From positions 7,668 to 71,667 of the forward strand of contig CAZRTH010000002.1 in NCBI GenBank assembly GCA_964602975.1: a stretch of 64,000 bases of DNA, in the 5' to 3' direction. The position numbers and the translations under genes are program-made. Numbering within the stretch: the first letter of the stretch is position 1; each line of letters begins with the position of its first letter. The notes beneath the pieces were generated by a model. It saw nothing but the letters and a program-made list of their open reading frames with translations, was not told where the DNA came from and did no database searches. Source of the DNA: an uncultured Candidatus Saccharibacteria bacterium. GTDB lineage: Bacteria; Patescibacteriota; Minisyncoccia; Phycocordibacterales; JBBTRF01. Positions 10,858-26,775 of the stretch are shown one piece after another.

Positions 10858-12003
10858 ATGAAACACGAGAGTGAAGCGACAGCATCTGGAGGTCAAGGAG
10901 AGGCGATAGTTAAAGACGCAGATCTCCCTGAATCGGAATTCGAGCTGGGTTTTGAAGAGATCGCTCGGTCAAAGACAAAAGTGACTGAGGGGAGAAACAA
11001 GGTGCCTGCTGGGGAAGTTTTCCTTGTTAGGCCATGGGAGGACTACACCCTCGTTGCTTTGAAAGATAAGCCCTCTCTGGCCATATATGACGAGCACGGA
11101 GCCATGATCGAGAATTTCAAGGAAAACGGGCTTCTGCATAAAGGTGATACCAACTGGGCTAGCCTTATAAGAAGTTGTGGAGGAGGATCATATCTTCTGG
11201 ATAGTCTTGGAGCGCAGGGTTCACGAGACACATTAGCTTTTGATCAACTGGAGACTTTCCTGAAATGGCCTCTGCGTGAATACAACATTCGATTCAGTAC
11301 AAGTCTTTCGGACATACAGAGGGCCCTCGGTAGTGACCAATCTGTTGAAAAAGGATGGAAGTATCAGTCATTTGATAACGGGAAATATCTCCTCTGTATT
11401 GATCCGGAAACTAAAATCTTCTTCGGATACATAACAGAAAATGACAGAGGCATTCGGCTTGCTCCGAAAGACTGGAAGAAAATAGACTTCACCGCCAAGA
11501 GTAATACGTTACCTAAGGATTTTGTAGCGCATATCGAAAAAACGCTACAGCAAACCGATGACTTCAAAGAACTTAACGCGAAGTATGGCGCGATCATTAC
11601 CGATATTGGCATCAATATCATCGATAGTGCAAATCCTTCTGGCGCCCCCGTCTTTAAAGACCTCGTCCCATCTGTTGCTTCAAATATCACAGTCGACCCG
11701 AGCAACCCTGATACGGTGTATTACTGCCAGAGCGGCAATCCAAGGGAGATCACTCGGCTCGATATGACTGGCGATCCGACCAAGTGGCAGACGCGGTCGG
11801 CGGCTATTCCGAAGCAATACGGTGCGATCAAAAACCTCCAACTTGACCCAACCGGCTCATATTTCCTTCTCTATACTCAAACCGCGCTGGTGATGCTTGC
11901 AAAAGAGACACTCGAGGAAATCAAAGAAGTTCCCGGTCTCAAAGAGGCCAATTTTGACTCCCAAGGCCGCGTCCGAGCCGTGGCAAGGACGGTTATTTGG
12001 TGA
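10858..12003 (+). CDS. hypothetical protein, first gene of MoxR-vWA-TGase/Ubl block
   Basis: 381-aa ORF, stop overlaps the TTG/GTG start of next gene; no recognisable domain. Confidence 0.45.
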   Translation: MKHESEATASGGQGEAIVKDADLPESEFELGFEEIARSKTKVTEGRNKVPAGEVFLVRPWEDYTLVALKDKPSLAIYDEHGAMIENFKENGLLHKGDTNWASLIRSCGGGSYLLDSLGAQGSRDTLAFDQLETFLKWPLREYNIRFSTSLSDIQRALGSDQSVEKGWKYQSFDNGKYLLCIDPETKIFFGYITENDRGIRLAPKDWKKIDFTAKSNTLPKDFVAHIEKTLQQTDDFKELNAKYGAIITDIGINIIDSANPSGAPVFKDLVPSVASNITVDPSNPDTVYYCQSGNPREITRLDMTGDPTKWQTRSAAIPKQYGAIKNLQLDPTGSYFLLYTQTALVMLAKETLEEIKEVPGLKEANFDSQGRVRAVARTVIW

Positions 12004-14732
12004 CATATGCCGTAGACACAAGCGGCTTGGCTCAAGTGATGGAGAGAAAGAGGATTGCACGCCTAACACAAGGAGTAAATGCAACGGACCTTTTCAGGAT
12101 CGATGATCTGAAAAAGAAGGGAGGAAAAACTGCGGTTGAAAAAGAGAAGGATCTCATTCCGGTAAAAGAAAAAATGGAGCGCGATGTTGCGCCTGCTTTG
12201 GAATCTCTGGATACGCTCGAGCACGCGGCGAATTTCAGAAAGCAGCTGGAAGAATTGCGCCGACAGCTCCGTCAGCAGGGTCTCGCCAACGATGAAGTCG
12301 TTTTTGTAACAGAAGGGATCGAGGCTTCAGTCAAAGAGAAAGAGAAGCAATTTGTCTCAAAAGAAACGGTGCCGATGCTTGAGTCAATTGAAAAAGGCTT
12401 GGCAGCTGGGTTGTCTCTATCGACCGCTGTCATCCTTCGAGCGGATCTGGATCGGCTGAAGGCCACCGAGCTGTTAATGGACGACACTGTCCGAGGTAGG
12501 TACCATGCGTTGGTCAATACATTCAACTTGGCATATCAGGAATTATTCCAGCGAGAGGGAAGCAAGATCATCGAAGAGGTTCAGGGCTTGCTGAAAGGGA
12601 TACGAACACAGCTGGATGCGATCACCAACAAAAATGGTTTTGATGATTGGATGGAGTTTCGACTACCACAATATAAGAGCCGGCTTGGAGAGATGCTTCG
12701 CGACTGTCCGATCACAGCGGACGATGCATACAGGGCGATATCCGGAGCTCGTACTGAGTTGCAGACCATTGCGGCTGAATATCAGAAAAAGTTTGAGGAA
12801 GAATACGCGAAGGTTCGGGAGAAAGCTGCGGGACGAGTAGATGCGGTCGTTGTCGATCTGGAGGGGGATATTGCTGCTATTGTCAAAAGGCTTCAAGACA
12901 AAAATTTCAAGGATCGAGCTGCCGCCGAACAGTATCTTTCAAGTAGCGAAGCGAGGAGGGTTTTGGAGAGTGAGATTCAAGCTCTCGCTTCAGATCAGCC
13001 CGATATTGCCGAGGAGCTCAAGCGAGCACTCAGAGTCCAGATCTCAAATAGCCTGTCGGCCATTGAACGTGGCGCGCAACTCAATATCGCAGAGACCGGT
13101 CAGCAGATGGTACTTTTTGGCAAGACCACTTTCCCTAAGTGGGAGGCAAAGGTGAAGGAGAAGAGGAAGAGGGCTGTGAGCCTCACCTTCGAGACCGATG
13201 AGAGAAGCCATGGTCCCGGAGTGAAGCCTGATCAGATCCAAGGTGACGTCGTGTTTGCGGTGACAGACCAGAAAGGAGAAAAGAACAAGGTCGGTCCATA
13301 TGAAGGGTGGACAGATGAGCATGAGTGGCGCCTCGGTCTTCATGCTCTACGAGGTCAGAGCACCCCGCCTTCATATATGACCGCGGAGGAGTTTCGAAAT
13401 GTGAAAAAACAATACAGCGCTTGGGAAAGCGGAACGCTCAAGAAGGAGTATGAGACTCGACGCCAAGAGCTTGCTACTATCTACGCCACTCGCGAGAAGG
13501 TGGGAAAGCGTAGTGCTGATAAAGAAACCCTTTGGAAGACAATGTATCAAGCAAAGCTGAGGGACCATGCTGAGTTTCTTGCCAAGAATCACATCAGTCT
13601 GTTTCGGCGCGCGGATGCCGTAAGAGAGAGTGACGAGGTGGATACGAACGGCAAGGGATTCGTGCCAAGCTGGCAAAGCCACTGGGTTGTCGATCCTGAT
13701 ACGGAATATAACCTCGAACGAATGGCAGAAACATTCAAGATGCAGCTCGACCTGAGGGAAGGTGTACTCAATCTCGATGGTCATGCCGGTACAGGAAAGG
13801 ACGTTCTCATGAAAATGTTCAGTAATCGAACAAATCGACCATACTTCAGCACCGATTGTACGAAGTGGACCACCGAGTACGAACTTTCTGAAGACGTTGT
13901 GCTTGAGGCAAAGGACGGAGCAACCCAGACGATCAAGGTACCGAGCGCTGTTTTGAACGGCATCCAGACCCCAGGAGCGCTGGTGTATTTCAATGAGGTG
14001 AACGGCATGCCTGAGCAAGCGCAGATCTTCCTGCATGCCCTATGGGACGAAAAGCGATCTTTGACCCTCAAGACCAGCTCTGGAAAGGTGGTGAAGGCTC
14101 ATCCGACCGTACTTTTTGCAAGCTCAAAGAACCCTGGGTATCCTGGTACCTTCGACCCACAGTTTGCGACCAAGAGTCGTATGGTATCGATGGAGATCGG
14201 CTATCCTTCACTGCACACTATCGCCAAGCCGGAGGACAAGAATCCAAACAAGCCATTTAATTCATCCGAGGCTCTGCGTATCGCCCGCGAAGTCAGTTCG
14301 TTGTCAGACATGACCTTTGAACCGAACATGGACAGGAACGAATTTGTACAAATGTGGGATAGCCACGTGAATGGCATCAAAAATGGTGCTCCAAAGCCAA
14401 GCGCTGTCCAGGAGTTCGATATCAAGACCATTCTCGCGTTAGTACAGTTTGGCACCAAGCTTCGCGAAAACTTCAAATTGAACTTTGAGAAGAGCCGAGA
14501 TGCTCGCAACGCTCTCCCTGTCCATCAGCCACTGACCTCTCGCGAGTTGCGCAGGGCTGCATATGGACTCTCCAAGACTCCTGTTGATGAAAAGATCAAG
14601 GGCAATCCCGATACCACAGCTCGTGAGCTTCTGGAGCGTTTCTTCCTGAGCCACATCGATAAGACCGAGGATCGCGAGAAGATCAAAACGGCGATGGCGA
14701 CCTGGCGTTCTCAAAAGAGGGTAGCCGCTTAA
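11997..14732 (+). CDS. MoxR/AAA_5-family AAA+ ATPase with long N-terminal coiled-coil region
   Basis: C-terminal half: 'LNLDGHAGTGKDVLMK' (Walker A-like, Lys present but Asp in place of Thr/Ser), 'ALVYFNEVNGMPEQAQIFLHALWDEKRSLTL' (matches MoxR 'DEINRA.P..Q.ALL.A..E'), 'TVLFASSKNP' (ATQNP-like), 'FDPQFATKSRM', 'IGYPS'; N-terminal ~550 aa charged/coiled; start is TTG at 11997 or GTG at 12000 overlapping upstream stop. Confidence 0.6.
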   Translation: MVTYAVDTSGLAQVMERKRIARLTQGVNATDLFRIDDLKKKGGKTAVEKEKDLIPVKEKMERDVAPALESLDTLEHAANFRKQLEELRRQLRQQGLANDEVVFVTEGIEASVKEKEKQFVSKETVPMLESIEKGLAAGLSLSTAVILRADLDRLKATELLMDDTVRGRYHALVNTFNLAYQELFQREGSKIIEEVQGLLKGIRTQLDAITNKNGFDDWMEFRLPQYKSRLGEMLRDCPITADDAYRAISGARTELQTIAAEYQKKFEEEYAKVREKAAGRVDAVVVDLEGDIAAIVKRLQDKNFKDRAAAEQYLSSSEARRVLESEIQALASDQPDIAEELKRALRVQISNSLSAIERGAQLNIAETGQQMVLFGKTTFPKWEAKVKEKRKRAVSLTFETDERSHGPGVKPDQIQGDVVFAVTDQKGEKNKVGPYEGWTDEHEWRLGLHALRGQSTPPSYMTAEEFRNVKKQYSAWESGTLKKEYETRRQELATIYATREKVGKRSADKETLWKTMYQAKLRDHAEFLAKNHISLFRRADAVRESDEVDTNGKGFVPSWQSHWVVDPDTEYNLERMAETFKMQLDLREGVLNLDGHAGTGKDVLMKMFSNRTNRPYFSTDCTKWTTEYELSEDVVLEAKDGATQTIKVPSAVLNGIQTPGALVYFNEVNGMPEQAQIFLHALWDEKRSLTLKTSSGKVVKAHPTVLFASSKNPGYPGTFDPQFATKSRMVSMEIGYPSLHTIAKPEDKNPNKPFNSSEALRIAREVSSLSDMTFEPNMDRNEFVQMWDSHVNGIKNGAPKPSAVQEFDIKTILALVQFGTKLRENFKLNFEKSRDARNALPVHQPLTSRELRRAAYGLSKTPVDEKIKGNPDTTARELLERFFLSHIDKTEDREKIKTAMATWRSQKRVAA

Positions 14733-14741
14733 CACCTGTCT

Positions 14742-17700
14742 ATGAAATCACCGGAGGATCATTCTGAAAGCGTCCCGAGATCGAACAAGAAACATGTTCG
14801 AGAAATGGTCTTTCTCGCCGAACAGGCAAAGGAAGGCGCATTGAAAGTGCTACCAGGAAAGGCTTGGGCACAGCATTTTCCTGTTCCTGCCGAAGAACGC
14901 AGAGAGATCCTTCAGGGAGTTCTCGATGGAAAAGTGAAGCCGCAAGACGCAGAATCAAAGGTCACTCCAGACGCCTTGGTCTATGACGCCGCTGATCTCG
15001 ACAGGGAGGGTTTGGATGGAGTGAGCTCACGAATCTTTGATGAATCGGCGACGGTACAGTACTACGACTACCCGAGATTTACCAAGTTTGTCTCGGAGAT
15101 GAAGGGTACGAAGATCTCTGTCGGGGATTGCGAAAAGCTCTACGGAGCGATCACAAAAGCGAGGACTCAGAAAAAGCTCAGAGATGCTTTTGGAACTACA
15201 GGGCAAGGGCAGCTTGATGGTGTGTTGGTACGTGACGCGAAGGCGATCGTCAGGACCATCGATACCCTTCCTCCGACAGAAAAAGTCTTGCAAGCTCTCA
15301 AGTTGGATTGGCTCTGTAGAGATAGGGGAGCGATCGGGACGCTTGAGCGAGATGAGGTAGTGTCGAAACTTTCCGGTAGCGAAAGAGAGTTATTCAAGAA
15401 GCTCTCCACCGGGTACCGTCAGTACGTCGATCAGGGAGATGAGGCAGGGTACAAGGAATTGTTGGAAGGTATACGTGACAATCACTCTCTTGTTGAAGAG
15501 AAGAAAGAGGCATCTGATGCTCCGAGTGACAGCATGCAGAAGCTTGAGGAAGAGATCGAAGAGTACAAGAAGGATACCGGAAATCCCGGCACTCCAAACG
15601 ACCCAGCTATCCCTCCCGAAGACGCGGACGAGTATCATACGCCGGAAGGAGGGTCACCGGAACAGCCAGAACAAAGCGGTCCTTCCCAAGAGCAACAGGA
15701 ACAAAGACCGATTTTTGAGATCGAGCCACCTCTCGGCGGCTATTATGCTGGTGGGCGAAAAAGCTACTATGATCGCACGAGAAAGACTTGGAGCAAGAAG
15801 AAGCAGTTGAGCGAGTACGCCGGAGTACTTTCAGCATCAGGACGTCACACGCTTTCTGGCAAGACCGACAGAGGAGTGAAATCACTCGCTATTCCGAATA
15901 GTTATGCGTTGGACGCGGTATCTGTGAAATACACCGGCTCCAAACCGAGACTGCACCGTGACCAGAATGGCTGTTTCTATATCGAGACAGATGGACCGTC
16001 GACTTTCTCGGTTGAATTTGCCAAGGAAGACAAGCTGTTCACCGGACCAGTGGTGGCAGAGGATACAGAAAAACTGTACGCAGGAGCCCTTTCCACTGAA
16101 AGTGAAACTTTGTTGCAGGCATTGCAAGGTAATGCAATGAATAAGGCAGAACAGGTGCGTCAGCATATTCTAGCGAATCACTTTTATCCCGGCGGCGGAG
16201 ACTTGGGTGCGGCTCAGGCTGTCCAAGCGAAGCTCCGCCATGAATCAACTCCGGATGCTTATATTCAAAATATCGATAAGGCAGAATATCTGGAATGTTA
16301 CTCCTCGAACACTCTTTTTGTGGCGATGATCCGACAGGCTGGCATACCGGCTCGTCTCGTGATTGGTCACAAGGTAGAGGGTGCTCGCGATGGAAAATCA
16401 GCCATAACAGAGTCTACCGGACATGCATGGTCTGAAGTCTGGGACGGTGGCAAGTGGGTGAGATTTGACGCAACGCCCGCTCCGAAGCCAGAGGACAAGA
16501 AAAAAGACAATAAAGAAAAGGAGGATGATGCGGAAAAGGAAAGCGCTCCTGAGGCGAAAGACAATGGAAAGGAGGCTCCGCAGAAGGAGCAGGAAAAAGG
16601 AGGGACTCCGTCTGATGAGGAAAATGGCGAGTCGAAAGAGCAGGGGGAAGCTAGTGATTCTGATGTCCAGGAAGGCGAAAATAGTGTCCAACAATCAAAA
16701 GAAAAGCTCGAAAAGGACGCCGCTGAAAAAGAAAAGCTCGAAAAGAAACTCGAAAGCGAGAATTCATTCGAAGATCTAGAAAAAATAAAAGAGGAAATAC
16801 AACAGGCCGACCTTTTGGATGATATGCAGAAGGAGCTTGATGAAAAAGTCGAAGCAAAAGAAGAGCAAATGAAGGAATCCATCAAGGATGAACTTGATAA
16901 GATGGTGAAGGACGGTTTCTTGGATGAGGAAAAGAGAAACGAGCTGGAACAGAAGCTTCTTGAGGAAGATGCTGCTGAATTGGATCGTTTGAGAGAGCAG
17001 CTTGAACAGGAAAACTCACTCTACAACGAATATGAGAATATCCGTGATGAAGTGATGCCGCTGGTGGATAAGTGGTTTGAATTTTTTGTAGAGCGCTTGC
17101 CTCGAGAGCAGAATGTCGATGTGGATGAGGATTCTTTGACCCGCCAGGGCGTGTTCAATCGAAGGTCGGTGAACAAGGCGCGAAATTTGTTGTTTGGATC
17201 GATCAAGAATCCCCGTATCATCAAGTCATCTGTAAAGCCATTGTTCATGAGCTCGATCCTTGTCGATGTGAGCGGTTCGATGGCGGGAGAGAAGCTGCAG
17301 AATGCCCGGAAGCTCCTAGTCTTCTATTCTGAATTGTTCACAAAGATCAGCGAAGAATTCGGCTACATCCGATTTTCCATAAATACATTCTCTGATAGAG
17401 TGAACGAGATCAAAGCTTTCGATCAGGATTATTCCGCGACCCAGAGTTACCTTTTCCCTGACAATTCACGCTCGACGGTGAAATTCCGTCTCATGAACAA
17501 TGTTACCGCGCTAGGCGGCACGAACATGCTTGATTCAGTGAAGAAGGCGGCAGCTGATCTTAATCGAGAGACGCACGATTTTCCTGATTATGCATCGGCA
17601 TTCTATTTTGTTGGCGATGGAGAGGATACCTGTGGCAATTCTGGCAATGTGAGTAGCTTTTTGCAGACAAATGATGCCGAGAGGGGATTTGGCGATCACA

Positions 17701-17867
17701 TGAGATCAGCGATCATGCTGGGAACCGAGAGCCAGAAGGCGATTTTGGCGAATATTTTTGGTGAGGAGCATACTACCGTAGCTCCAGATCTCGATTCTCT
17801 GATCGAGGAGAGTATGCTTCGTTTCAACGATGATATTGAAGCGTATATGAACATGAAGACGGGGTAG
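14742..17867 (+). CDS. transglutaminase-like cysteine protease domain + acidic low-complexity/coiled-coil linker + C-terminal von Willebrand factor A (vWA) domain
   Basis: TGase core 'AEYLECYSSNTLFVAMIRQAGIPARLVIGH' (Cys ~16296-16298), 'GHAWSEVW...GKWVRFDATP' (His, Asp); vWA MIDAS 'ILVDVSGSMAG' (~17265), 'ALGGTNM', 'FYFVGDGEDT'; ~170 aa of Lys/Glu/Asp-rich low complexity between. Confidence 0.7.
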   Translation: MKSPEDHSESVPRSNKKHVREMVFLAEQAKEGALKVLPGKAWAQHFPVPAEERREILQGVLDGKVKPQDAESKVTPDALVYDAADLDREGLDGVSSRIFDESATVQYYDYPRFTKFVSEMKGTKISVGDCEKLYGAITKARTQKKLRDAFGTTGQGQLDGVLVRDAKAIVRTIDTLPPTEKVLQALKLDWLCRDRGAIGTLERDEVVSKLSGSERELFKKLSTGYRQYVDQGDEAGYKELLEGIRDNHSLVEEKKEASDAPSDSMQKLEEEIEEYKKDTGNPGTPNDPAIPPEDADEYHTPEGGSPEQPEQSGPSQEQQEQRPIFEIEPPLGGYYAGGRKSYYDRTRKTWSKKKQLSEYAGVLSASGRHTLSGKTDRGVKSLAIPNSYALDAVSVKYTGSKPRLHRDQNGCFYIETDGPSTFSVEFAKEDKLFTGPVVAEDTEKLYAGALSTESETLLQALQGNAMNKAEQVRQHILANHFYPGGGDLGAAQAVQAKLRHESTPDAYIQNIDKAEYLECYSSNTLFVAMIRQAGIPARLVIGHKVEGARDGKSAITESTGHAWSEVWDGGKWVRFDATPAPKPEDKKKDNKEKEDDAEKESAPEAKDNGKEAPQKEQEKGGTPSDEENGESKEQGEASDSDVQEGENSVQQSKEKLEKDAAEKEKLEKKLESENSFEDLEKIKEEIQQADLLDDMQKELDEKVEAKEEQMKESIKDELDKMVKDGFLDEEKRNELEQKLLEEDAAELDRLREQLEQENSLYNEYENIRDEVMPLVDKWFEFFVERLPREQNVDVDEDSLTRQGVFNRRSVNKARNLLFGSIKNPRIIKSSVKPLFMSSILVDVSGSMAGEKLQNARKLLVFYSELFTKISEEFGYIRFSINTFSDRVNEIKAFDQDYSATQSYLFPDNSRSTVKFRLMNNVTALGGTNMLDSVKKAAADLNRETHDFPDYASAFYFVGDGEDTCGNSGNVSSFLQTNDAERGFGDHMRSAIMLGTESQKAILANIFGEEHTTVAPDLDSLIEESMLRFNDDIEAYMNMKTG

Positions 17868-17995: not shown

Positions 17996-19489
17996 ATGTT
18001 CGCTATTCTCACGCGGATCCGGAGCTGGTTTGAGCGTTTGCTCGGCCAAGACCTCGAGCCGCTGAAAGAAGGTTTTCTTTCGTGCGACTCAGCTCAGAAA
18101 CAGGGGTTGGTGATGACGAAGTTCGAGCTCGAGGTAAGGCCTCGCCGTATCATGGGTGTTCTGCCTGTGTTCGGAGTTCGAAAAGTCGGTTCGGTCTCAT
18201 TTTTCGACGCGGTCAAAGCCCCCATTCGGTCTTCTCTCGCTTCGTTGAGTCATGAGTTGCGCCAAGTCCCTCGACGTGTCCATGATGCGGCCGAAAAAGG
18301 CCTCAAAATTGGAACCGAAAAAGCTGTTGATCAGGCAAAGGCAAAATTGAATGTCGAAACACAAAAGCTCCTTCAGAAATTTGACGAATCGCACCTTTCC
18401 GGGCTCATCAAGTCCGACAGGAATGTCTTTCGTCAAAAGCTTCTCGAGGCCCTCAGTGATCAGGCATCGCAAGTATTTGCCACTGCCACAAAGAAGCATC
18501 TGGCCGAACTCGTCCTGCGCATCCGACAAGAAACATCAGTTTCCGATTCATCGAGTGTCTCCGATGACAATGTCGCTTCATTGCCACTGCCGACCGGCAC
18601 ACGTTTCGTGTTCAGGAAAGGCAAGATGACCACGTTTGTCATCGAGCAACCGCCTCAAAAGCGCACGCTGAAAATCATGAATGAAGGTGGCGATAGATCG
18701 GAGATGGTTCAGTTGGCGCTGCCTTACGTCGTGTTCTTCATCGTCCTGCGCGGTCGCAGATCCGACAAGGCATACGTGCTCTTTCGGAAAGCTCCGCTGC
18801 GAAGCGTGAGAGACGAATTACTCTGCCCAGCTCTTCCCAACATCTTCGGAGACTTCAGCGTTTGTTTTGCTCCATCGGCAGCTAGGGACACCCTGGCAGA
18901 GATGGCGGAAGAATCGATCGCTAGCTTCTGGGGCGGCAGGTTTATCAAAACCGAAGTCGTCACCGAGGCTCACAGGAGGACCCCTATCGAAGATTGGGCT
19001 GAAGGGTCGAGAAAAGACTCCTTGTTTGGCATATCACATCCGTGGATGTCGGCCAAACAGAGTGTTGCAAGCATGATGGAGAAGATCAGCGCTGAATTCG
19101 TTGCTGATACCATTGCTGGCCAGAAAAAAGAAAAAGGCGGCAAGGAGATCGCTTCCGCGCTCGATGCGGCTGTCACCGCGCTTGCGACTAAGATCGAGAA
19201 CGAAATGAAAGAGACCTGCTTCAAGCTCGTTCCTTCATGGAACCTCGATCCGACGGTCCTTGCTCAAACAAGTGCAGGGTTCAAGCAGTCTGTCGCTGAG
19301 GTATGCACTGTAATTAAGGCGCAGCTTGGCGAAAAGATCGAAGGAACCTTGTCGAATGAGGCCTTGGAAGGAGCTCTTGAAGCAGCAATCCAACAAACGA
19401 TCGCCTCGATGAATGCGGACATGGACAAGCCGATGGCGGCCGCTCGCGAAGCGTTCTCCGCGATTCTTAAAGAAAAGGAGGCAAAATGA
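17996..19489 (+). CDS. candidate E2/UBC-like ubiquitin-conjugating-enzyme homolog (hypothetical)
   Basis: Motif 'LLCPALPNIFGDFSVCFAP' (Cys codon 18863-18865) resembles UBC active-site 'HPNI...G.IC(L)' spacing; preceded by predicted beta-strand stretch; gene stop overlaps JAB gene start (ATGA); RBS GGAGG upstream. Confidence 0.4.
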   Translation: MFAILTRIRSWFERLLGQDLEPLKEGFLSCDSAQKQGLVMTKFELEVRPRRIMGVLPVFGVRKVGSVSFFDAVKAPIRSSLASLSHELRQVPRRVHDAAEKGLKIGTEKAVDQAKAKLNVETQKLLQKFDESHLSGLIKSDRNVFRQKLLEALSDQASQVFATATKKHLAELVLRIRQETSVSDSSSVSDDNVASLPLPTGTRFVFRKGKMTTFVIEQPPQKRTLKIMNEGGDRSEMVQLALPYVVFFIVLRGRRSDKAYVLFRKAPLRSVRDELLCPALPNIFGDFSVCFAPSAARDTLAEMAEESIASFWGGRFIKTEVVTEAHRRTPIEDWAEGSRKDSLFGISHPWMSAKQSVASMMEKISAEFVADTIAGQKKEKGGKEIASALDAAVTALATKIENEMKETCFKLVPSWNLDPTVLAQTSAGFKQSVAEVCTVIKAQLGEKIEGTLSNEALEGALEAAIQQTIASMNADMDKPMAAAREAFSAILKEKEAK

Positions 19490-20166
19490 CCCCGATTCAT
19501 CTCAAAAAGACAGACGGTGCGAAGCAGTCTCCTGAGACGACCCATTACATTGCGGCCAGAAATGGTCTCTTCCTTCAAAAGAAGATGTGGTGGGTGGATG
19601 CTACGGTGCCTGTGGCTGAGGCGAGCAAGCTCAGGGTCCAACACCCTTCAGCGAGATTGCTTCTGCCTAAGCTTCCCGTAGAGATCTTGGCCCAAGCTCT
19701 GAAACTTGCGAAAGCAGTATACGACGTTTCCAAAAGCGAAGTATGTCTGCTCTTGCACTATGATGAGAAAACGGGCTATCAACTCACCGTTCCAGTGCAA
19801 CTAGTCACGCCCTTAAGCGTCGACTACAACGCTTCACAACGGGTGCCAGGAGCGCTCTGTGTAGGAACTATCCACTCGCACGGTAAGCTGCACGCGTTTC
19901 ATTCCGCCACCGACCATGCTGATGAAGAGACTGCAGATGGCGTCCATGTAACCCTCGGGAGCTTGGATGTGTATCCGCGATTCTCTTTGTCGGCAGAGAT
20001 GGCGATCAACGGGACGAGATTCCCCGTTGAGACTCAGTGGTTCGAAGGACTGGTTCTCGAACAAGAACGCATCTATCGTATCGATTGGCCGGCCATTGAT
20101 TCGTGGGAGGTTCCGCGGAAATGGCTCGATGTCGTCGAGCACAGGAAAGGAACACCATGGCCATAA
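19486..20166 (+). CDS. JAB/MPN (JAMM) metallopeptidase, deubiquitinase-like
   Basis: Canonical JAMM motif 'E...HSHGKLHAFHSATD' (HxH-x7-S-xx-D) with upstream Glu ('KSEVCLL'). Confidence 0.7.
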   Translation: MTPIHLKKTDGAKQSPETTHYIAARNGLFLQKKMWWVDATVPVAEASKLRVQHPSARLLLPKLPVEILAQALKLAKAVYDVSKSEVCLLLHYDEKTGYQLTVPVQLVTPLSVDYNASQRVPGALCVGTIHSHGKLHAFHSATDHADEETADGVHVTLGSLDVYPRFSLSAEMAINGTRFPVETQWFEGLVLEQERIYRIDWPAIDSWEVPRKWLDVVEHRKGTPWP

Positions 20167-20867
20167 AAGTGATCGGTCTCGGCGGTATCGGTAGTCAGTT
20201 GATATCGCCTCTGTGCCGCTACCTTGATTCGCAGAAGGACGGCAGCATTCAGATCGTCGTCATCGACGGCGACGCATACGAAGCCAGAAATGCCGACCGC
20301 CAGGAATTCTTGGATGTCGGCAATAAGGCTGAAATTACGGCTGCTCGGATGAGGCGGGATTTACCCGGTCTTCTCATCGAGGCGAAGCCTGAATACGTGA
20401 CGGAGGAGAACGTGTTCTTCATGATCAACAACGGCGATATCGTGTTCCTGGGGGTAGACAACCATGCTACTCGGAAACTCGTGTCCGACCGCTGTCGAGA
20501 ATTGGAGGACGTGGCGCTCATCTCCGGCGGGAATGAGCTGATCGACGGCAACGTCCAGATCTATCTCCGCATTGGTGGCAAGGAACTATCGGCCCCGATC
20601 ACGTATCTCCACCCGGAGATCGAACATCCGCGAGATCGGAATCCCGCGGAAATGAGTTGCGAAGAGCTCGCTTCGAGTGGAGTTCCACAGCTGATCTTTA
20701 CCAACTTGACCGCGGCCGTCCTTATGCTCTCAGCATTTCGAATGGTTGGCGCGGTCTTGGCAGGAAAGGGAAAGTTGATATACTCGGAGCAGTTCTTCGA
20801 TGTAGAAACCGGTAACGTCCTGACCTTCTTGCGCAAGCCAGAAGGTCATCACAGAAAGGCAACATGA
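20157..20867 (+). CDS. E1-like (ThiF/MoeB/ubiquitin-activating) adenylyltransferase
   Basis: Rossmann 'VIGLGGIGSQL' and 'VVIDGDAYEARNADRQ' (ThiF 'D.D.V..SNLNRQ' motif); ATG at 20157 with AAAGGA RBS, overlaps JAB gene end by 10 nt. Confidence 0.7.
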   Translation: MAIKVIGLGGIGSQLISPLCRYLDSQKDGSIQIVVIDGDAYEARNADRQEFLDVGNKAEITAARMRRDLPGLLIEAKPEYVTEENVFFMINNGDIVFLGVDNHATRKLVSDRCRELEDVALISGGNELIDGNVQIYLRIGGKELSAPITYLHPEIEHPRDRNPAEMSCEELASSGVPQLIFTNLTAAVLMLSAFRMVGAVLAGKGKLIYSEQFFDVETGNVLTFLRKPEGHHRKAT

Positions 20868-21139
20868 CAGAAACGACGACAACACCCGATGGCAGCGCGC
20901 AGCCTCCAGTGCTGGACGCGCCCAGTGTGCAGATCCAGTGTGGCGCCAACAGCCAGAGCATCACGCTCGGCGATGGCGAAGTCCTGACAGTGGGGAATGT
21001 GCGCGAGCGCCTCGGCGACGTGCTCAACCTCGCCCCCACTATGCTCGCCGTTATCGGTGACGAAACAGTGGACGACGACCGCGCCCTCCGGCCCGGAGAA
21101 ACGCTCCAGTTCATCAAGCAGTCCGGGACGAAGGGCTAA
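20864..21139 (+). CDS. ubiquitin-like beta-grasp protein (ThiS/MoaD-like), C-terminal Gly
   Basis: 91 aa; 'VQIQCGANSQSITLGDGEVLTVGNVRERLGDVL...MLAVIGDETVDDDRALRPGETLQFIKQSGTKG*' matches ThiS/MoaD pattern ending in Gly; start overlaps E1 stop (ATGA). Confidence 0.5.
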   Translation: MTETTTTPDGSAQPPVLDAPSVQIQCGANSQSITLGDGEVLTVGNVRERLGDVLNLAPTMLAVIGDETVDDDRALRPGETLQFIKQSGTKG

Positions 21140-21191
21140 CTTATCGGCCACCGCACTCGGCTTCCGTGATGCTGATTCGAAAACGCAACTC

Positions 21192-21221
21192 GGCCTCCTT
21201 TCGGGGAGGTCGGGTTTTTTG
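21192..21221 (+). terminator. rho-independent terminator after Ubl gene
   Basis: 'GGCCTCC-TTTC-GGGGAGGTC' hairpin followed by 'GGGTTTTTTGTTTGGG'. Confidence 0.5.
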
Positions 21222-26699: not shown

Positions 26700-26775
26700 G
26701 CGCCCGTAGCTCAGTTGGTAGAGCAGGTGTCTTATACACACCTGGCCGGGGGTTCGAATCCCTCCGGGCGCACCA
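26700..26775 (+). tRNA. tRNA-Ile (anticodon UAU, decodes AUA), CCA encoded
   Basis: Cloverleaf: acceptor GCGCCCG/CGGGCGC, D-arm GCTC-AGTTGGTA-GAGC, anticodon stem GGTGT/ACACC with loop C-T-TAT-A-C, T-arm GGGGG-TTCGAAT-CCCTC, ACCA end. Confidence 0.7.

Follow-up and report, generated by a model that had tools for sequence, protein, structure and literature searches.

We analysed a stretch of 64,000 nucleotides (nt), hereafter called the window, from contig CAZRTH010000002.1 of an uncultured Candidatus Saccharibacteria bacterium (assembly GCA_964602975.1), with a focus on an ATPase-like gene and its downstream neighbour. The list of open reading frames (ORFs) placed a frame of 911 amino acids (aa) on the forward strand at 11997–14732, beginning with TTG and followed by GTG as the next codon at 12000. 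The preceding ORF, of 381 aa (10858–12003), ends in the stop codon TGA at 12001–12003, which overlaps the TTG 11997/GTG 12000 start. An earlier reading of the letters alone (the original prediction) had reported both this ORF and the overlap of its candidate starts with the upstream stop, and both were found as described. The copy of the product in the protein collection, P0001 (source NCBI), is 910 aa long and 100% identical, and starts with MTYAVD, which corresponds to GTG 12000, one codon after the listed start at TTG 11997. Directly downstream, on the same strand, lies a partner gene of 1041 aa (14742–17867; ORF and Pfam evidence).

A single ancestral gene split by a one-nucleotide deletion

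Comparison with homologs showed that the two overlapping ORFs are parts of one gene. Among 77 homologs with 43–65% identity, nearly all were about 1280–1300 aa long, and most covered 100% of the query. The closest of them, P0002 (1289 aa), was aligned to the window with tblastn: its residues 28–375 followed the frame of the upstream ORF at 50% identity and ended at 11982 (...GRVRAV), and its residues 377–1289 followed the frame of the 911-aa ORF at 65% identity, starting at 11985 (KDGYLVTY...). A single intact ORF of 1220–1350 aa spanned both frames in 38 of the 41 related GTDB loci with usable flank; two of the three exceptions, L039 and L050, contain runs of N (scaffold gaps) and were on that ground ruled out as broken copies of the gene, and one was cut by a contig end.

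The DNA alignment located the lesion. Where the window reads 'GTGG-CAAGGAC', the homologs read 'GTGGATAAGGCC' and 'GTAGATAAAGAT', which puts a 1-nt gap between 11983 and 11984 on the forward strand. Through the missing base, the Asp codon of the conserved motif GR[IV]RAV-D-KDG[HY]LV.Y is lost; the site falls within the last blade of an N-terminal beta-propeller, and the last strand of this blade is removed. The 5′ fragment of the split gene thus extends over 10858–11983 (+), from where the ORF continues, out of frame, up to the stop at 12001–12003 (TGA), and the 3′ fragment covers 11985–14732 (+), with homology resuming at KDGYLVTY. Because the homologs are single proteins and the window has a 1-nt deletion, the overlap at 11997–12003 is not a native gene boundary, and the translational coupling of two genes that the original prediction had read from the TTG/GTG start was not borne out. 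The 911-aa ORF is the larger fragment, the 3′ two-thirds, of one ancestral gene split by this deletion.

We consider the deletion to be probably real in the sequenced population. An identical 1-nt gap was present in the Logan assembly of run SRR8931233 (locus L008), which is not fully independent evidence because both assemblies may rest on the same reads. There is no homopolymer at the site, and no signs of a split gene were seen at ten other overlapping-ORF pairs in the window, which served as a proxy for assembly quality. These observations speak against the view that the cell has the intact gene and makes one protein of about 1291 aa, with the frameshift being a minority variant or an error of sequencing or assembly. 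That explanation would agree with the good conservation and otherwise lesion-free state of both fragments (identity to P0002, 50% and 65%), and with an intact gene at all other loci that have neither a scaffold gap nor a contig end, but on balance we regard it as rather unlikely.

A real split could also be tolerated by the cell, with translation stopping at TGA 12001–12003 and re-initiating at GTG 12000 or TTG 11997, so that a propeller fragment and a separate stalk-AAA fragment, still working with the partner, would be made. The stop/start overlap GTGA, the sequence AAGGA 7–10 nt upstream, the 910-aa product of NCBI origin whose MTYAVD start fits GTG 12000, and the undamaged state of the AAA module, the stalk and the partner gene are all in keeping with this possibility. 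However, the break lies inside the last propeller blade, away from a domain boundary, and none of the relatives is split at this point. AAGGA simply corresponds to the conserved Lys-Asp codons, and confident starts in the window are almost all ATG, most of them without a Shine-Dalgarno sequence. We therefore find a tolerated split quite improbable. Programmed −1 ribosomal frameshifting that joins both ORFs is close to refuted. Both frames are open over 46 nt (11958–12003), and a −1 shift anywhere in this overlap would restore a near-native protein, but the zone holds no slippery heptamer of the form X XXY YYZ. The 38 loci whose single ORF is intact do not have the frameshift, which is therefore not conserved.

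As both halves are otherwise intact, the deletion is best seen as recent, and not as programmed. The window copy is consequently a damaged one, which at best provides a propeller without its last strand plus a re-initiated stalk-AAA fragment. For annotation, the TTG/GTG 'start' at this locus cautions that what looks like two coupled genes may be one split gene.

The AAA+ core belongs to the MoxR class

The AAA+ alpha/beta core, of MoxR type (Pfam AAA_5), was delimited to 13695–14216 (+) by its AAA_5 and CbbQ/NorQ matches and by the strands that DSSP assigned. When the AAA region was searched in isolation, it matched AAA_5 with 38 bits, against a cutoff of 22 (E = 2e-9), over the whole model, and an AAA_5 match was found in 7 of 7 homologs. 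The full-length ORF gave only noise-level matches in Pfam and NCBIfam (AAA_22, GvpN, CobS), and the hmmscan of all 911 aa reported no AAA_5 match with E values allowed up to 0.1. In this way, a domain match can be masked by long helical regions rich in charge.

The best PDB sequence matches found by phmmer were CbbQ (5c3c, 3e-9; 6l1q) and NorQ (9qh4, 9qhd), aligned with hardly any gaps from the P-loop to a point past the Arg finger; a profile built from 44 family sequences raised the matches to CbbQ 5c3c and NorQ 9qh4 to E of about 1e-11. Structural comparison was in agreement. With Foldseek, the AlphaFold2 (AF2) model matched CbbQ/NorQ chains at E values of 1e-10 to 1e-11 (6l1q, 7e-11) and a target-normalised template modelling (TM) score of about 0.7, at an identity of only 17–19%.

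The sections of PMC7159879 drawn on here define the MoxR clade by a helix-2 insert, a pre-sensor-1 hairpin and an Arg finger placed before strand 5. DSSP assignment of the AF2 model revealed a predicted helix-2-insert beta-hairpin at aa 632–649 of the ORF (strands 632–639/642–649), between beta2 and beta3, and a predicted pre-sensor-1 hairpin at aa 688–700 (strands 688–690/698–700), before beta4; Arg728 directly precedes strand 5 (729–733). The AAA_5 score above threshold, the two modelled hairpins, the position of the Arg finger and the vWA partner alongside thus place the core in the MoxR class, as had been proposed from its motifs. The alignments agreed with those motifs individually: FNEVN is the Walker B/DEINR box, SSKNP is sensor 1, and IGYP follows the Arg finger. 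Sensor 1 (SSKNP, with its Asn at 14130–14132) and the Arg finger (TKSRM, with its Arg at 14178–14180) were placed at 14121–14183 (+) by the family alignment. Sensor 2 (LTSRELRR) lies at 14532–14555 within a C-terminal helical lid region, 14265–14702 (+), which was taken from the AF2 model and the family alignment. Residues K601, E667, N712, R728, R849 and R852 were conserved in at least 90% of the family.

A paired substitution in the Walker motifs

Few residues in biology are as strongly conserved as the Walker A Ser/Thr and the Walker B Asp. Both are replaced here. Walker A reads GHAGTGKD (13779–13802, +), with the Asp codon GAC (13800–13802) in the position of the Mg-ligating Ser/Thr; it aligns column for column with the CbbQ/NorQ Walker A GPTGCGKS, and it is the sole [AG]xxxxGK[STDN] motif in the 911-aa protein. 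Walker B reads LVYFNE (13980–13997, +), aligned to CbbQ ICYLDE, with the Asn codon AAT (13992–13994) for the canonical Asp and the catalytic Glu kept. Hence, the protein departs from the canonical Walker A GxxxxGK[ST] and Walker B hhhhDE, and retains sensor 1, the Arg finger and sensor 2. The Asp in GTGKD had been noticed in the original prediction, and profile alignment confirmed it: the region is AAA+, with no canonical GKS/T elsewhere, and GKD was kept in 75 of 75 close homologs. The replaced Walker B Asp is a change beyond that observation, and GHAG[TS]GKD was accompanied by YFNE in all 75 aligned sequences.

A HMMER scan with the AAA region against 1.84 billion representatives returned 560 relatives at E up to 1e-3. 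Walker pairs were counted among the best 150 of these 560, for those with an alignable P-loop. GKD together with NE was found in 81 representatives, GKN together with DE (a sister family) in 43, and GKT together with DE in one, besides a handful of other combinations. By neighbour joining, GKD+NE formed one clade and GKN+DE a sister grade. Three further GKD sequences lay inside the GKN grade and had lost the Walker B Asp too (GE twice, EE once), and one GKN+EE sequence was also found. The Lys, the Walker B Glu, the sensor 1 Asn, the Arg finger and the sensor 2 Arg were kept down to about 30% identity. Each of the steps Thr/Ser to Asn, Asn to Asp and Asp to Asn is a single-nucleotide change.

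These patterns suggest that the two residues normally holding the catalytic magnesium have traded chemistry across the whole family. With Walker A Ser/Thr changed to Asp and Walker B Asp changed to Asn, the carboxylate would therefore have moved from Walker B to the P-loop, and in both families the Mg2+-ligating Walker A hydroxyl appears to have given way to a carboxylate or an amide, with Walker B changing reciprocally. We speculate that one carboxylate is needed in the Walker dyad, and that in the GKD family the P-loop carboxylate could ligate Mg2+ directly; for the Walker A Asp this is the most likely role. Because the other catalytic residues are conserved and the Asp/Asn substitutions are paired, we favour a nucleotide site that is constrained and re-wired rather than decaying, and a working Mg-ATP site over a dead one. 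Binding of Mg-ATP and at least slow hydrolysis are to be expected, as all other catalytic residues are retained.

The alternative is a pseudo-ATPase, in which the GKD/NE site no longer hydrolyses ATP and the module, whether it binds nucleotide or stays free of it, regulates the partner as a scaffold or switch. Neither of the canonical residues of the Mg2+ site is present, the second P-loop position is unusual as well (His here, Glu in the sister family), and substitution of the Walker A hydroxyl commonly cripples Mg2+ binding in other P-loop nucleoside triphosphatases (NTPases). Against this, the Lys, the Glu, sensor 1, the Arg finger and sensor 2 are each kept in at least 90% of a set of sequences that reaches down to about 30% identity, while in dead AAA+ domains several of them have usually gone. 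The reciprocity of the D/N and N/D pairs suggests, moreover, that a working metal site has been under selection. From the residue patterns, a pseudo-ATPase is a live rival, though a less likely one than the re-wired site.

The second P-loop position itself (13782–13784) is an invariant His (GHAG) in the family of the window protein. The GKN sister family has Glu there (GEAG), a few divergent GKD+NE sequences have Asp (GDTG), and the aligned CbbQ/NorQ sequences have Pro.

The partner is a transglutaminase-like protein with a vWA domain

The partner gene appeared to be a constant companion of the AAA gene. Its ORF was directly downstream in 39 of 39 GTDB loci, complete in 37 (1024–1121 aa) and running off the contig in two, with gaps between the two genes of −38 to +81 nt, mostly below 30. 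A gene of about 1290 aa followed by a Transglut_core protein of 1023–1053 aa was likewise seen in 5 of 5 independent metagenomic contexts.

The product combines three regions. A transglutaminase-like (TGL) core with Cys519, His561 and Asp576 lies at 16287–16478 (+; Pfam Transglut_core, 5e-13), and the Cys-His-Asp triad was invariant in the partner family (28/28). A profile of that family matched TgpA of P. aeruginosa (6g49) at 1e-5 in the transglutaminase core. An acidic linker follows at aa 580–790, with 72 D/E in 211 residues. The last region, at about 17250–17741 (+), is a domain of the von Willebrand factor A (vWA) type with a weak Pfam VWA match, whose metal ion-dependent adhesion site (MIDAS) comprises DxSxS at 17265–17279, the Thr in GGTNM, and GDGEDT. 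The GDG Asp of this site was invariant, and the DxSxS residues and the Thr were at least 90% conserved. The maximum 19-residue hydropathy of the partner was 1.26, too low for a transmembrane segment, and the hydropathy check gave no such segment in the AAA protein either. Judged by its residues, the partner is thus a predicted soluble TGL-acidic linker-vWA protein in which triad and MIDAS appear intact.

Architecture of the ancestral protein

Joined across the deletion, the ancestral protein of about 1290 aa is predicted to consist of a beta-propeller, a long helical stalk, a small beta domain and the MoxR-class AAA+ module. The upstream ORF encodes an N-terminal, beta-propeller-like domain of about 376 aa with helical inserts. 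Its AF2 model had a mean predicted local distance difference test (pLDDT) of 83.7 and a predicted TM score (pTM) of 0.79, and Foldseek matched it to WD40/YVTN propellers at E of about 1e-6, with modest TM scores of 0.35–0.5. The model of the 911-aa ORF, built on the family alignment, reached a pLDDT of 81.5 and a pTM of 0.53. By DSSP of this model and by composition, the stalk corresponds to aa 49–357 of the ORF (12141–13067, +), with helices of up to 60 residues and 34% charged residues; the small beta domain (aa 360–462) and a further helical region (aa 463–544) follow at 13074–13628 (+). A coiled-coil N-terminal extension of about 550 aa without domains had been proposed. The long helices at aa 49–357 would fit a coiled coil or a helical bundle, and the beta domain at aa 360–462 does not agree with that description. 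The length was also underestimated, since the true N-terminus adds the propeller of about 376 aa and the full extension is about 940 aa.

Distribution and genomic neighbourhoods

An exact-pattern scan of 185,579 GTDB species representatives detected the AAA/transglutaminase-vWA module at only 49 loci. All informative host names belonged to the candidate phyla radiation (CPR): Parcubacteria/Paceibacteria, Taylor-, Kerfeld-, Uhr-, Roizman-, Levyi-, Peri-, Peregrini- and Gracilibacteria. Some third-party annotation (TPA) records were labelled Gammaproteobacteria, Methyloversatilis, Pseudomonadales or Sulfotelmatobacter, and P0040 was labelled Syntrophomonadaceae; these labels are unconfirmed. The pair was thus found almost only in records labelled CPR/Patescibacteria. 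No relatives were found in viral contigs, and no NCBIfam family matched the pair with a meaningful score. By our arithmetic, a pair of about 1300 plus about 1050 aa takes up about 0.5% of a 1.3-Mb CPR genome.

Nothing was conserved around the pair besides its two genes, and the contexts ranged from ribosomal operons to purine genes. At locus L007 (10001–17044), the pair stood between fusA and rpsG in an otherwise conserved str/ribosomal operon, an odd site for an insertion, which suggests that the cassette is mobile.

The GKN sister family has a layout of its own. Its AAA protein, of about 1140 aa with GEAGTGKN and DE, occurs in the opposite gene order, with a vWA protein of about 760–1030 aa upstream, as at L009 (3017–12693), L059 (6902–16730) and L060 (7012–12798). 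A protein of about 1080 aa resembling REase_MTES_1575/PDC-S37, which looks defence-type, follows the sister AAA gene in two loci. A word-indexed search aimed at the taxonomy of the sister family yielded only 2 proteins.

Comparison with known MoxR-vWA systems

In both sequence and fold, the AAA core is matched best by the CbbQ/CbbO and NorQ/NorD couples (PDB 5c3c, 6l1q, 9qh4–9qhg), in which, as here, the adjacent gene encodes a partner that has a vWA domain and a linker. In NorQD, the pore of the hexamer receives a vWA 'finger', and ATPase action remodels the NorD linker (PMC13036017); the docking model for both couples comes from PMC13036017 and PMC9976466. The differences are considerable. 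CbbQ and NorQ are single-module proteins of about 270 aa with GK[ST] and DE, whereas the window family has about 940 extra N-terminal residues, GKD and NE. They are found in a Rubisco/carboxysome or nor context, in contrast to the present neighbourhoods without cbb or nor genes, and the present partner carries a TGL domain and a vWA domain without a sequence match to NorD/CbbO. The window protein is not a member of the CbbQ or NorQ subfamilies.

The MoxR-vWA-YebA(TGL) operon was predicted to be an ATP-dependent, membrane-proximal degradation system (Zhang and Aravind, 2012, PMC3495828). MoxR-vWA-YebA/TgpA systems unite the same three domain types, a MoxR AAA+ module, a vWA domain and a TGL domain with intact Cys-His-Asp. 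However, YebA is a protein with eight transmembrane segments in a three-gene operon, while TGL and vWA are fused here in a soluble protein, and the MoxR protein of the window family differs from that of the YebA operon by its large N-terminal extension, its deviant Walker pair and its occurrence almost only in CPR-labelled records.

Ternary vWA-MoxR conflict systems, in the sections of PMC7159879 on these systems, contain TGL effectors, propellers in some subsystems, and GxxxTAKS P-loop variants. According to the same sections, they share with the window pair the MoxR-vWA core and an occurrence as scattered, cassette-like modules. They differ from it by having a conserved third component (VMAP, iSTAND, FtsH), which the window pair lacks, and by carrying the propeller on the vWA protein and not on the AAA protein as in the window family. 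The multicellularity statistics given there leave CPR organisms aside. Two sections of that paper make no mention of the GKD/NE variant, and a text search of it for 'Walker A' returned nothing.

Midasin/Rea1 (see also PMC3495828) likewise brings together AAA_5-type modules, a long linker made of helices, a region rich in D/E, and a MIDAS/vWA domain that cooperates with the ring. It has six tandem AAA modules and the MIDAS in one chain, as opposed to one AAA module and a MIDAS on a second protein here, and the resemblance is an analogy only.

Taken together, the comparisons describe the pair as a variant of the MoxR-vWA(-transglutaminase) theme that is uncharacterised in the literature searched. 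Whole-word literature searches returned no description of a GKD/NE motif or of this CPR family. That GKD+NE and the sister GKN+DE represent a previously undescribed functional AAA+/P-loop site, powering a CPR-biased two-protein machine, is a tentative proposal, to which we give somewhat less than even odds.

A possible mechanism and a rival function

Our preferred reading, as a whole, is that of a split ancestral propeller-stalk-MoxR gene which, with its TGL-vWA partner, encodes a machine with a re-wired Mg site; we put its probability at about 0.6. By analogy with NorQ/NorD, CbbQ/CbbO and MoxR-vWA-YebA, the AAA+ module would form a hexameric ring, and this ring would engage the vWA domain of the partner (PMC13036017, PMC9976466). 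Nucleotide-driven movements might then pass through the charged linker of the partner, and gate or feed the transglutaminase-like domain as a peptidase or cross-linker acting on a client (PMC3495828). The client may be captured by the MIDAS site and/or the propellers. We infer the hexamer, the vWA docking, the peptidase role of the TGL domain and the competence as an ATPase from these analogous systems.

Several observations weigh against this reading. The pTM of only 0.53 for the 911-aa model makes the domain arrangement uncertain, and neither sequence comparison nor a PDB search with the partner detected similarity of its vWA domain to NorD/CbbO. Since GKD+NE is one clade, most of the covariation goes back to a single inherited event, with a few small ones besides, and Walker B is still acidic in one GKD+EE sequence. 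The case for a re-wired site competent in ATP hydrolysis is made from residue conservation and covariation, and substitutions of the Ras S17N type illustrate that loss of the Walker A hydroxyl can weaken Mg2+/nucleotide binding. Moreover, the sparse distribution (49/185,579) and the ever-changing neighbourhoods are as compatible with an accessory or conflict module as with a housekeeping remodeller.

This last point leads to a rival for the function of the pair, an accessory conflict (defence-type) module, in place of a housekeeping remodeller, with the propeller as sensor and the TGL peptidase as effector. Apart from its presence in so few GTDB species representatives, the pair is a self-contained two-gene cassette with a different neighbourhood each time, including the fusA-rpsG insertion, and the sister GKN family adjoins a PDC-S37/REase-like gene. 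The vWA-MoxR conflict systems, as presented in the sections of PMC7159879 mentioned above, carry both TGL effectors and deviant P-loops such as GxxxTAKS. On the other hand, PADLOC had no match for the AAA protein and only a weak TerY-like vWA match for the partner, no third component of the VMAP type occurred in the contexts and loci examined, viral contigs gave no matches, and a hypervariable region was not noted. A role in conflict is therefore a serious possibility, which we nevertheless place below even odds.

The cell biology of the ultra-small CPR bacteria is largely unknown, and in these organisms the pair may be an ATP-driven machine, so far uncharacterised, for protein processing or for conflict. 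An Asp/Asn-swapped family beside an Asn/Asp sister family is, in addition, an experiment of nature on the way in which P-loop NTPases hold Mg2+.

Other observations in the window

Downstream of the partner gene and on the same strand lies a cassette at 17996–21216. It comprises a 497-aa protein without family match, a JAB/PRTRC-A-like gene (19486–20166), a ThiF-like E1 gene (20103–20867) and a 91-aa ORF (20864–21139) that ends in ...SGTKG and is a possible candidate for a ubiquitin-like protein; a strong terminator (21187–21216) follows. The JAB/ThiF cassette was considered as part of the AAA/partner system and rejected, because tblastn gave 0 matches in 60 related loci. A Shine-Dalgarno-like motif was present at three of the four cassette starts examined (GGAGG, AAGGAGG, AAAGG), unlike most of the window.

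Many genes of the window, for example those at 1604, 36641, 37787, 55244, 60000 and 60693, carry a TATAAT-like box only 5–10 nt ahead of the ATG and lack a Shine-Dalgarno sequence, which suggests that leaderless mRNAs are widespread in this genome. ARAGORN predicted a tRNA-Ile with the anticodon UAU (tat) at 26700–26775, whereas in bacteria AUA is usually read by a modified CAU tRNA.

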